From: a virus
Lineage: Duplodnaviria > Heunggongvirae > Uroviricota > Caudoviricetes
Length of the DNA stretch: 5,496 bases
Reading direction: 5' to 3' (one strand)
Virus record (IMG/VR): IMGVR_UViG_2609459846_000013
The translations under genes and the position numbers were made by a program. Position 1 is the first letter of the stretch. Each line of letters begins with the position of its first letter. The notes below the pieces were generated by a model. That model searched no databases and had not been told where the DNA came from. It saw only the letters and a program-made list of their open reading frames with translations. Shown one piece after another: positions 1 through 4,725 of the stretch.

Positions 1-99
1 AAAAACGGTTGAGGCGCTGATGTGTAACGTCAGTCCGATACAACGGTTAGTCAGCTTCTTGTCGAACTTGAGCTGAAGGATCTTAAAACAGGTTTCCAT
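1..99 (-). CDS. Partial ORF (first 33 codons only; body lies beyond window start) with helix-turn-helix-like N-terminus; candidate transposase (IS21 IstA / Mu-like) or small-terminase/regulator
   Basis: Reverse complement of 1-99 reads ATG (99-97) then METCFKILQLKFDKKLTNRCIGLTLHISASTVF with no stop to the window edge. AGGAG lies 4 nt upstream of the ATG (rc of 101-109). The ...R.IG.TL.IS.STV pattern resembles N-terminal HTH motifs. Too short for the supplied ORF track. Identity is a guess. Confidence 0.3.
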   Translation of the reverse strand, partial: METCFKILQLKFDKKLTNRCIGLTLHISASTVF

Positions 100-203
100 A
101 GTGCTCCTGGATTTTCTCTTTCTGGACATTGACGTCTCCACTGGTTTAAACACGGCAATGGAGACTGTGGTGAAAAGAGTTAATTCCCGGAGTGACTGGC
201 AGG

Positions 204-350
204 ATGCCAATCAATGATCGGAAGCATGCCAAATCGTGATCGATTGTGATGCCAAACTGTGATCGGAGATGAATGCCAAATCATGATCGATTCGAATGCC
301 AAACTGCGATCGATTCAGATGCCATTTTGCAGGGTAAGCGTAGATCGGAT
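204..350. repeat. Tandem array of ~23-bp direct repeats, each containing a GATC (Dam) site; 5 well-conserved units at 204-325 plus degenerate units to ~350
   Basis: Units start at 204, 226, 249, 273, 296 and 319 (partial), all beginning ATGCCAA(A) and containing (T)GATCG; approximate consensus ATGCCAAAYNRTGATCGRNNNNN. A seventh GATCGG lies at 343-348 and CGGATAC occurs twice (346-352, 356-362). Six GATC sites in about 140 bp. Confidence 0.85.
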
Positions 351-867
351 ACAGGCGGATACTGACTTCATTCAGTTTTGGGGTTGCCGTCTGGTTACGT
401 GCCGCACCTTCTTCGCCGTGTCCCACGACCGCACCCCCGGCAGAAACCAGTTGCTTAAATTCATTACTGTGAATGGTTTTAACAGTACAGATTTTACGCA
501 TCACCGACTCATCAGAAAGCTGACGCATAATTTCTCTGTTCAGTTCCGGGATAACCGTATAACCACCATCAGCCGGAACACTGCCGGACAGGTTGCGGGT
601 TTCCCCGGTCAGAATGTAAGAGCGTAGCTCATTTTTGGTGATTTTATCTTCGACGGGAACACCAGGCTGGTTACGTTCTTCATCAGCCACAGACTCGAGG
701 CGGGAAATTTCTGTGTCGAGGGAATCGGCTTTTGCACGCAGTTCATCAAACTGTTTGCCTTCGTCATCGGTTAGACTGCGGTTTTCACTGTCGGCTTTTT
801 CCAGCAGGGATCGCATCTGGTTTTTCAGGGCGGTTTTTTGCTGGCGGAGTTCGATTAATTTCTTCAT
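211..867 (-). CDS. HK97-fold phage major capsid protein, N-terminal portion only (delta-domain coiled coil plus start of capsid core); probably truncated or interrupted
   Basis: ORF-track protein of 218 aa. The N-terminal ~65 aa are coiled-coil-like (MKKLIELRQQKTALKNQMRSLLEKADSENRSLTDDEGKQFDELRAKADSLDTEISRLE), followed by SGSVPADGGYTVIPELNREIMRQLSDESVMRKICTVKTI...AGGAVVGHGEEGAA, which matches the conserved G-G-Y-x-V-P-E...R-x-hydrophobic...V-G-E-G-A-A block of HK97-family capsids as I recall it. Full-length capsids are usually over 300 aa; here recognisable similarity stops by roughly nt 322-376 and the last ~36 codons are translated from the tandem repeats. Start ATG at 867-865 with only a weak RBS. 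Confidence 0.55.
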   Translation of the reverse strand: MKKLIELRQQKTALKNQMRSLLEKADSENRSLTDDEGKQFDELRAKADSLDTEISRLESVADEERNQPGVPVEDKITKNELRSYILTGETRNLSGSVPADGGYTVIPELNREIMRQLSDESVMRKICTVKTIHSNEFKQLVSAGGAVVGHGEEGAARNQTATPKLNEVSIRLYPIYAYPAKWHLNRSQFGIRIDHDLAFISDHSLASQSITIWHASDH

Positions 868-1100
868 GAAGGTTTTCTCGCATTGGTTAAGATTCAGGAC
901 GTGAAACCAACACGGGGGGAGCGCCGCCCGACACTCTCGGCATCTCGCAGATCAACCCGGCATCGCGCAGGGGGTCAGGCGGCATTGTGGCGGCTCACGT
1001 CTGAGTGCCACACGCCAACATATACATAAAAATCAGTATGTAAACATCAGCCAGAATCACCGAACAACCTGGAACAACCACGAACAAATAATTTACAAAA
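868..1100 (-). promoter_or_regulatory. Intergenic control region upstream of the capsid-like gene; contains paired direct repeats that could be operator/activator sites
   Basis: 233-bp non-coding gap between the terminator and the capsid-like start. Direct repeats CGGCATC(T/G)CGCAG at 938-950 and 958-970 (20 bp apart, two helical turns); CGAACAA at 1061-1067 and 1081-1087 with GAACAACC at 1062-1069 and 1072-1079. No convincing sigma70 -35/-10 pair found by eye on the minus strand, so an activator-dependent promoter is possible. Confidence 0.3.
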
Positions 1101-2910: not shown

Positions 2911-4725
2911 TTAATTTTTGCTGTCGTCATTTGTGACCGATGCACATGATGGCATCCAGTCTTCTGAATCCTCTGTCAGTGTCACATTTGAACGCAAACC
3001 GTGCTTCGTTTTCCGTTTTATATACTCCCTGCCATATTCCGCCATTGCCCCCGGCATATCTTTACCGAAGCGCGTCAGTGTTACAGGTTTACCGAATCCG
3101 TGTGCCCTCATATATGCCAGATAGGCGTGATAAAGATACCTGCGCGGACTGAACGGAATAATTTCGGCATTACCCACTAACAGACCATCACACATTACCG
3201 ACGACATGAGATAGCCACAGAAGTCCACCAGCGAATCGCCCTCGCGTTTTATCACCAGAGCTTCTTCTGATTTCTGCTGCTCATACAGCAGGCGTTTAGC
3301 TTCGTCCTGGTCAGAAAAACGAGTAAGCAGATGGCGAATCACAACCGCCAGCTCTCCTTCTATTTTTTCTGCCAGCATGGGGTCGCGCTCGTTCTCCGGT
3401 ACAACCTCCGAAAAATTGAATATCACCCGACGACGTGAGATCCCCCCGCTGCGGTCACTGAATGACATGGCGTTATTGTTCACCGCCAGCACGACCGCCT
3501 GAATGCGTGTTGAGTAGGGGGCTTTATGCTTCGGGTCGATTGCCACCTTGTCACCGCCTGTAATAGCCTTAATTCCTGCGCCATCACCAGCGTAGCGGGT
3601 CATATCCGGCATGATAATCAGCGAAAAGCCAACCACTAACGCGCGTTCCCTTGCATCTTCCAGCGCCTTCATGCTTGCCGATACTGTGTTGGCCTTACCC
3701 GCCAGCATGGTGCAAATCTCCGCCATCACGCTTTTACCACTTCCCCCTGGACCTGTTACCTCAATGAATAACTGCCAGTCGTACCGGTTCGCCAGCACCA
3801 TGAATAATGCAGCCAGCACGCGATCCGTCTTGCGGTCATTCTCTGCCACCGAGCAGCGTAACCACTTCCAGAAATTCGGCGCATGTGTTGCCAGCGTTTC
3901 CCCCTCTGCTGGTGGGCTGAAAGGTAATTCACTGGCAATTAACAACCAGTCGTTTTTGTTATGCTCCCGAAAATTACCTGTTCTGGTATCAAATACCCCG
4001 TTACTGAATCCAATCAGGTTACGGGCTGTATTCCCCATTACAGGCAAACTTAACTTCATGGTATCGACCGCCGATTTAATGGCGTTCTGCGAATAGCTGA
4101 TCTCCGCATCAATGAAAATCTGCGCCATAGCACGCTGTAACTCTTTATCCTGAATCGGCTCCCATACAACGCCGTTGTAATGGTGAACAGTGTCAGAGTC
4201 GGCATGAATCGCCAGTTCACCGCCATAATGTGCCAGGAGAACTTCGCCGCGCTGGCTTGCTCCCATCTGGTTAAGCGCCAGTGGTGCGGCGCTGTCTTCT
4301 GTTTTTTTCTTAACAGGAAGCTGAATCACCAGACCATCAGAAAGATTCTGGCGCTCACGGGCCAGATATTCGCGCCAGTTCTGCACCTCCTGGCCGTGCA
4401 TACCCTCAGGATAAAAATTTGCATCCTGTACGCCTGCCGCCGCCAGCTTCTGACCAATCGCCTTTATCATTACTGGCGCAAGATATCCGGCCCTGAATAT
4501 GCGCACGGATTTTCTGCCTTCCGGCACAATTTGCAGCTTATCCAGTTCGGATAACTGCTGCTCCCCAAGCCACACAGGAGGCTCATTATCTCCGGCCATA
4601 CGCGCGTCATGTTCCTGCCATTGTTTTGCGTGTGACCAGGCATCACTACCCGCAAAAATAATGACTTCTGTTTCTTTGTGTTTTATGCCGCGTGACTGCT
4701 GTTTTACGTTCGGTGCCAGTTTCAT
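2911..4725 (-). CDS. Replication initiator primase-helicase, P4-alpha / D5 family (phage- or plasmid-associated primase C-terminal helicase domain), 604 aa
   Basis: Longest ORF in the window. Walker A GPGGSGKS at residues 325-332, followed by a hydrophobic stretch with an acidic residue (LVVGFSLIIMPDM) and an Asn-rich motif (AVNNN) typical of SF3/D5-type helicases. A D5_N-like region lies upstream (HYGGELAIHADSDTVHHYNGVVWEP). The C-terminal ~120 aa are basic and aromatic-rich and may bind the origin. ATG at 4725-4723 with GGGG RBS; ATGA overlap with the upstream ORF. Primase catalytic motifs were not identified by eye. Confidence 0.9.
   Translation of the reverse strand: MKLAPNVKQQSRGIKHKETEVIIFAGSDAWSHAKQWQEHDARMAGDNEPPVWLGEQQLSELDKLQIVPEGRKSVRIFRAGYLAPVMIKAIGQKLAAAGVQDANFYPEGMHGQEVQNWREYLARERQNLSDGLVIQLPVKKKTEDSAAPLALNQMGASQRGEVLLAHYGGELAIHADSDTVHHYNGVVWEPIQDKELQRAMAQIFIDAEISYSQNAIKSAVDTMKLSLPVMGNTARNLIGFSNGVFDTRTGNFREHNKNDWLLIASELPFSPPAEGETLATHAPNFWKWLRCSVAENDRKTDRVLAALFMVLANRYDWQLFIEVTGPGGSGKSVMAEICTMLAGKANTVSASMKALEDARERALVVGFSLIIMPDMTRYAGDGAGIKAITGGDKVAIDPKHKAPYSTRIQAVVLAVNNNAMSFSDRSGGISRRRVIFNFSEVVPENERDPMLAEKIEGELAVVIRHLLTRFSDQDEAKRLLYEQQKSEEALVIKREGDSLVDFCGYLMSSVMCDGLLVGNAEIIPFSPRRYLYHAYLAYMRAHGFGKPVTLTRFGKDMPGAMAEYGREYIKRKTKHGLRSNVTLTEDSEDWMPSCASVTNDDSKN

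Follow-up and report, generated by a model that had tools for sequence, protein, structure and literature searches.

The window analysed here is a stretch of 5,496 nucleotides (L001 6001-11496 of the source record) in which an array of short tandem repeats lies between the 5′ parts of two genes, both on the minus strand. On the left are the first 33 codons of istA (1-99, with the PGAP start at 99), and on the right is the 5′ fragment, about 178 codons, of an HK97-type major capsid gene (332-867). The part of this gene encoding the capsid C terminus lies past istB and outside the window, and beyond this remainder follow genes for a prohead protease, a portal, a head-tail connector, an HNH protein and a P27-family small terminase. 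The opposite side of the capsid gene carries genes for an SSB, a ProQ/FinO protein, a D5-type primase and an Icd-like protein. Judged by its genes, the layout is that of a capsid-forming phage-inducible chromosomal island (PICI-like satellite).

An AT-rich stretch at 2640-2900, bounded by a small ORF and the gene for the D5-type primase (2911-4725, minus strand), is dense in direct and inverted copies of GGTGAACAG(T), from which TRF picks 2738-2769 and 2874-2898; this is presumably the island's own iteron origin. Furthermore, 2.7 copies of CGAACAACCA (1061-1087) precede a GC-rich hairpin, GGCCCGGAAAAAATCCGGGCC, with an A-run and a short T-run at its flanks. The hairpin, within the segment 1061-1137, resembles a bidirectional terminator separating the capsid gene from the next ORF.

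The array consists of six phased units at 197-331, with a period of 22-24 bp. TRF reports a period of 23 at 226-324 (4.3 copies, score 91) and a period of 47 at 202-312 (2.4 copies, 81% matches, score 141), both covering the same DNA and together spanning 202-324, and a direct-repeat search over the array returns families of 45 nt and 20 nt. Tandem repeats of about 23 bp, as described in the first-pass annotation, are therefore real, since both searches and the motif positions agree. The array had been placed at 204-350 with six GATC sites. Six sites do lie in this region (at 216, 238, 261, 285, 308 and 343), of which only five belong to the array, the sixth (343-346) being capsid DNA; the right limit of the array is 331, and its innermost unit starts at about 197. 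The four TGATCG hexamers noted earlier (215, 237, 260 and 284) are all inside the array and occur nowhere else in the window. ATGCCA, which is TGGCAT on the minus strand, is found at 204, 226, 249, 273, 296 and 319, accounting for six of its nine occurrences in the window, so that TGGCAT is present in all six units and GATC in five. As a bare statistic the GATC cluster is modestly unlikely, five GATC within 128 bp being reached in 20 of 2000 dinucleotide shuffles (p ~0.01). What marks the array as non-random is its regular phasing, the co-phased TGGCAT and the conservation in relatives described below, rather than the GATC count.

The insertion in the capsid gene and its empty site

The array meets the capsid gene at the tip of an insertion sequence. 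The element (L001 3693-6331) is 2,639 bp long and has the termini 5′-TG...CA-3′ (TGCAAAATGG...GGAATACGCA). Its left part, 331 bp, lies at 1-331 of the window on the minus strand, and the remainder, comprising the rest of istA, istB and the right end, extends beyond window position 1. The tip is at 331 and capsid DNA resumes at 332, where a 7-bp target-site duplication, GGGTAAG, occupies 332-338, with its second copy at L001 3686-3692. In the intact allele of strain WP8-S18-ESBL-07, GGGTAAG is present once and the sequence reads ...GGTTTTCGGGTAAGCGTAGATCGG..., while the two junctions in the source strain read ...GGTTTTCGGGTAAG/TGCGTATTCC... (from L001 3693 onwards) and ...GCCATTTTGCA/GGGTAAGCGTAGATCGG... 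(window 331/332). Indeed, in-silico deletion of the element together with one copy of the duplication restores an uninterrupted capsid ORF of 381 codons that is identical to the intact allele at 1145 of 1146 positions. The capsid gene had been called truncated where it meets the array; the contact is as described, and the gene is interrupted, with its other half beyond the element and outside the window. The insertion thus explains the "truncated" gene to an annotator, and with the gene broken by the element at about codon 178, the island copy in this one strain is probably unable to build its own capsids.

We searched for the array within intact capsid genes and within intact islands without istAB, and did not find it. 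The first-pass annotation had named exactly this, repeats inside an intact capsid gene, as the observation that would make them part of the gene. It had also proposed looking leftwards for a DDE transposase, at the far end for a matching inverted array, on the flanks for a target-site duplication and at intact capsid genes for the breakpoint. These lead, respectively, to the HTH-protein ORF being the start of istA, followed by istB, to a shorter inverted array, to GGGTAAG on both flanks and to the junction at 331/332.

The element contains only istA and then istB. IstA (511 aa) matches the NCBIfam model NF033546, "IS21 family transposase", above its cut-off (E 2e-84), and also Pfam rve and the Mu-transposase C-terminal domain (PF22483, E 3e-20). 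IstB matches NF038214 (E 9e-77) and PF01695, IstB_IS21 (E 1e-60), and is named by PGAP "IS21-like element ISSso4 family helper ATPase". The PGAP name of IstA in the source record is generic. In an exact look-up in the protein collection, IstB was found and IstA was not; IstA does, however, share 97.8% identity with a protein encoded on a plasmid and named "ISSso4 family transposase" by PGAP; the copy of the element that encodes this protein has nearly identical left and right arrays. ISSso4 is a listed insertion sequence of Shigella sonnei 53G (10.1101/680777). The element would thus be ISSso4 or a close isoform, a name that comes through the PGAP annotations. The istA-istB order, TG...CA termini, two-block repeats at both ends, duplication with an empty site, and multiple copies are all those of the IS21 family.

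Copies elsewhere show that the element moves. When window positions 1-900 were compared with complete E. coli genomes by megablast, one full-length match was found, in the E203449 chromosome (NZ_CM128603.1), and hundreds of other E. coli genomes match only from 332 (325 with gapped extension), in genes annotated "phage major capsid protein". The full-length copies compared are identical or 99.7-99.8% identical, share the same first and last 24 bases and lie in unrelated places: in a plasmid of the source strain (duplication GTATT), between fragments of a nuclease-domain gene and a DEAD-box helicase gene (TTACCTG), and within a TPR gene (GTATCC). A 96.5% variant lying between an ISL3 fragment and a traE fragment has no duplication. 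The source strain itself holds about 12 copies at 100% identity, 10 of them chromosomal and 2 plasmid-borne. A near-full copy is present in 226 of 5426 E. coli genomes, the capsid insertion in one of them, and 302 records have a copy covering at least 80% of the element. The identical copies, the duplications and the restriction of the capsid insertion to a single genome together point to a recent insertion by an active element.

Duplication lengths vary among the copies (5, 7, 6 and 7 bp at L003, L004, L005 and L001), and several target sites include GTAT or TTAC. Some copies of the array stand without the element. In E. coli O157 644-PT8, an orphan truncated left array lies beside terW (L007 2487-2605), with its tip intact, five TGGCAT units and one GATC mutated to GCTC; an IS66-family tnpA starts about 85 bp further on. 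In approximately 950 E. coli records the best match to the element is at 90-95% identity, and those sampled, many of them EHEC O157, O26, O103 and O111, contain short unannotated matches to the array alone. Such GATC clusters therefore mark ISSso4-type ends, including many orphan arrays in EHEC genomes. IS66-family elements repeatedly adjoin or truncate copies of the element (L003 4753-5639, L007 2690-4259 and three further matches), and the N terminus of IstA (residues 6-70) resembles the IS66 accessory TnpA model NF038385 (E 9e-15, below its cut-off). The adjacency and the likeness may be coincidence, or may reflect a shared HTH or target preference.

Organisation and conservation of the terminal repeats

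On the minus strand and reading inwards from the tip, the left end consists of L1 (312-331, 5′-TGCAAAATGGCATCTGAATC), which is the terminal unit, lacks GATC and has its tip set by the empty site, followed by L2 (289-311, GATCGCAGTTTGGCATTCGAATC), L3 (265-288, GATCATGATTTGGCATTCATCTCC), L4 (242-264, GATCACAGTTTGGCATCACAATC), L5 (220-241, GATCACGATTTGGCATGCTTCC) and the innermost L6 (197-219, GATCATTGATTGGCATCCTGCCA). The spacings from TGGCAT to TGGCAT along L1-L6 are 23, 23, 24, 23 and 22 bp. Each unit is built of two conserved blocks, GATCA (block A) and TTGGCAT (block B), about one helical turn apart, and the repeat recurs about every two turns. Next to L6, alignment of the left and right ends and comparison with relatives reveal an inner conserved motif, GTCACTCCGGGAATTAACTCTTTTC (172-196, minus strand), which recurs inverted just inside the right-end array as GATCAACCGGGAACTTAACTTTTTC and which in several relatives begins with an additional GATC.

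The right end reads, inwards from its tip, R1 (TGCGTATTCCGCTCTATTC), R2 (GATCACGGATTGGCATCGAAGTCC) and R3 (GATCAGCGATTCGCATCCATTC), and then GATCAACCGGGAACTTAACTTTTTC; R1-R3 are left-type units in inverted orientation. The ends of the element are thus long imperfect inverted repeats, the left being longer by three units. Their terminal units, TGCGTATTCCGCT on the right and TGCAAAATGGCAT on the left, match poorly. Eight of the 13 GATC sites of the element fall within the 225 bp of the terminal arrays (five left, three right), all of them in block A. Furthermore, the pairs L5-L4 and L3-L2 are 84% identical with a higher-order period of 47 bp, which suggests that the left array grew by duplication of a two-unit block.

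The same arrangement is found in related elements. A scan with IstA, using one genome per species, gave 11 loci with 79-92% identity over the best segment (79-89% in the unit analysis), in Serratia, Erwinia, Klebsiella, Buttiauxella, Rahnella, Enterobacter and an unclassified Enterobacteriaceae isolate. Wherever the upstream DNA of these relatives is present and intact, an array of 4 to 7 units precedes istA. Among 31 distinct units from Serratia, Klebsiella, Buttiauxella, Rahnella and Enterobacter, the four letters of GATC are kept in 29, 31, 31 and 31, respectively, and the A after them in 28. The TGGCAT block hardly varies, which is partly built in as it served as the search anchor, and the T before TGGCA is present in all 31. 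Little information resides in the 3-4 bases that separate the blocks or in the 5-7 bases that follow them.

More distant cousins (42-47% IstA identity) have the same architecture, and block A differs among them: TGATC in ISBmu3 (Burkholderia), GATC in ISEc12 (E. coli and Klebsiella), TGACC in IS1162 (Pseudomonas), TGAAC in ISAs29 (Aeromonas) and CGGCC in ISPre4 (Pseudomonas). As in the ISSso4 clade, a tip of the form TGC(G/A)nATT is combined with phased direct units of about 23 bp; the cousins have four such units, with a block B of ATTTCGG or similar. In ISBmu3, IS1162, ISAs29 and ISEc12, two to four copies of the unit in inverted orientation, 100-250 bp upstream of istA, come between the direct units and this gene. 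The ISSso4 clade lacks such inverted copies; it has a larger number of direct units and, in place of the copies, a hairpin.

This hairpin (GTCTCCATTG-12 nt-CAGTGGAGAC, 134-165, minus strand) has a 10-bp stem, lies 5′ of istA and gives an RNA fold z of −2.74. The stem is kept in 9 relatives, with minimal covariation (one of the 10 pairs is compensatory). Its 3′ arm includes GGAG, six nt ahead of a conserved in-frame ATG at 129 on the minus strand, and the hairpin could occlude the ribosome-binding site on read-through transcripts. Starting at this ATG would add MSRKRKSRST to IstA. The annotated IstA proteins of ISEc12, ISAs29 and ISBmu3 extend about 8 residues beyond the point aligned with start 99, and that of ISPre4 about 1, and with these cousins reaching past the annotated start, the ATG at 129 may be the true start of istA. 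The distance of about 105 bp between the array and the HTH-protein ORF given in the first-pass annotation is correct for the start at 99; it becomes about 75 bp for the ATG at 129. A scan of window positions 1-420 for sigma-70 promoters and terminators on both strands found none, and a relaxed promoter scan of the abutted right and left ends, with 0-7-bp spacers, found none spanning the junction. A relaxed internal scan gave one weak 8/12 candidate, too near the ATG to convince. With no convincing candidate from these scans, we claim no promoter for istA and no junction promoter of the IS21 type.

The identity and boundaries of the element, the duplication, the empty site, the mobility and the conservation pattern of the units are direct observations, and there is very little doubt that the capsid gene of the PICI-like island was invaded by an IS21-family element, ISSso4 or a close isoform, whose left terminal inverted-repeat region is the array. 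The repeat array is an ordinary, already-known part of a catalogued insertion sequence.

The GATC sites and other readings of the array

Block A is TGATC in ISBmu3 of Burkholderia, to our knowledge a genus without Dam, and TGAAC in ISAs29, which comes from the Dam-positive genus Aeromonas. This distribution argues for GATC serving IstA, as part of a recognition block of which it would be one of several states, and against a Dam device. A role for methylation could be superimposed on recognition by IstA, with Dam methylation of the end GATC sites modulating IstA binding and hemimethylated DNA favouring or blocking transposition, as in IS10 and IS50. The end GATC sites will be methylated in E. 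coli, and their concentration in block A, their retention in the enterobacterial relatives and the GATC found in every unit of the enterobacterial cousin ISEc12 all fit such a layer, as does the position of N6-methyladenine, which projects into the major groove, the face that HTH domains read. Against these stand the block A of ISBmu3 and the TGACC and TGAAC of IS1162 and ISAs29, and we consider a Dam layer of this kind unlikely. A full-text literature search on the IS21 family together with Dam or GATC returned no paper linking them.

A more specific form, in which methylation of the eight Dam sites per element of the ISSso4 clade gates transposase loading, for example with only the hemimethylated, just-replicated ends being competent, is distinctly doubtful. 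If true, the IS21 family would gain its first described case of Dam-coupled control, and the long left array could be a methylation-sensing operator for istA. Like the ends of IS10, IS50, IS903 and IS3, those of the ISSso4 type have GATC within the transposase-binding sequence and a Dam-positive host. In those four elements there are one or two GATC sites, with demonstrated effects of Dam, whereas the ISSso4-type ends have eight, and GATC is likewise present in the cousin whose host genus is not known to have Dam.

The remaining readings concern what the array belongs to. The first-pass annotation had offered, as one option, transposase-binding terminal repeats with 5′-TG units, from an IS21-, Mu- or Tn7-like element in the capsid gene; this is borne out in its IS21 form and fails in the others. 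A Tn7-like or Mu-like transposon end would share the multiple phased transposase sites, the 5′-TG termini and the PF22483 domain of the transposase. Nevertheless, the element is only 2,639 bp long and has no genes besides istA and istB, whose products are both assigned to the IS21 family by NCBIfam equivalog models, and there are no TnsA, TnsC, TnsD or MuB genes and no cargo. This gene content rules such an end out, and we regard it as very improbable.

A second option was a Dam-regulated pac site of the island, similar to that of phage P1, with the HTH ORF as the small terminase. The pac site of P1 has clustered TGATC(A/G) hexamers in two clusters flanking the cleavage region, and the array, with four TGATCG and one CGATCG within about 100 bp, shares clustered hexamers of this type. 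The neighbouring ORF, however, is IstA and not a terminase, and the island's own P27-family small terminase and HNH genes are several kb away. Intact copies of the island lack the array, which travels with the element to plasmids and unrelated chromosomal genes. Unlike the P1 site, the array is not phage or island DNA, has no adjacent pacase gene, and has its hexamers in a single orientation at a fixed 22-24-bp phase rather than in two clusters around a cleavage site. The likeness is coincidental, the empty-site comparison refutes a P1-type pac site, and the probability we attach to one is close to nil. Similarly negligible is the third option, in which the array would be a second iteron-type replication origin of the island or one of its operators, sensitive to Dam. 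Direct repeats phased at about two helical turns have a superficial likeness to iterons, yet the unit is unrelated to the island's own GGTGAACAG iterons beside the primase gene, and the array is always at the tip of the element and moves with it. An iteron origin belongs to its replicon and lies beside the initiator gene, whereas the array is missing from intact islands, and the empty-site comparison thereby refutes this option too.

Proposed mechanism and comparison with IS5376

Cryo-EM and biochemistry of the IS5376 IstA established that ends in this family contain multiple direct repeats (L1/L2 and R1/R2) 23 bp apart, that HTH-1 and HTH-2 contact a pair of conserved segments, some 10 bp apart, within each repeat, and that integration needs two complete repeats at each end (PMC10122671). 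The two-HTH, DDE and β-barrel architecture of IstA has been confirmed (PMC12486865). From homology and the IS5376 biochemistry (PMC10122671), we infer that IstA binds the repeats of the element described here and, with IstB, transposes it. Each unit of about 23 bp would be an IstA binding site, with GATCA and TTGGCAT each read by one of the two N-terminal HTH domains, the assignment of domain to block being drawn by analogy. An IstA tetramer on the outermost two units of each end would synapse L1/L2 with R1/R2 and cleave at the terminal CA, and IstB would deliver the target DNA, giving rise to a 5-7-bp duplication. L3-L6 would most likely be accessory or loading sites and, as they lie between the tip and istA, may also serve as an autoregulatory operator.

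In a phmmer search against the PDB, IstA aligns to the IS5376 protein from residue 75 only (E 1e-13), with HTH-1 outside the alignment, and a relaxed Pfam scan of residues 1-130 gives a weak HTH_23 at 12-43 (E 0.16); with so late an alignment and so weak an HTH match, the two-HTH architecture of the ISSso4-type IstA is presumed from family membership only. The literature was also searched for a review describing "multiple repeated sequences" at the ends of IS21, and no usable statement was found.

Together, the ends described here resemble those of IS5376 and IS21 (IstA tetramer, PDB 8B4H and 8Q4D) in their direct repeats of about 23 bp, each with two blocks about 10 bp apart, and share with them the terminal CA, the istA-istB operon and the presence of repeats at both ends. 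The blocks differ, being GATCA and TTGGCAT here and the GC-rich CS1 and CS2 in IS5376, and the IstA protein is only distantly related to that of IS5376. The number of units also differs: IS21 itself has three and two terminal repeats and IS5376 two per end, compared with six on the left and three on the right here, and the six left-end units exceed the "usually at least two" of the family.
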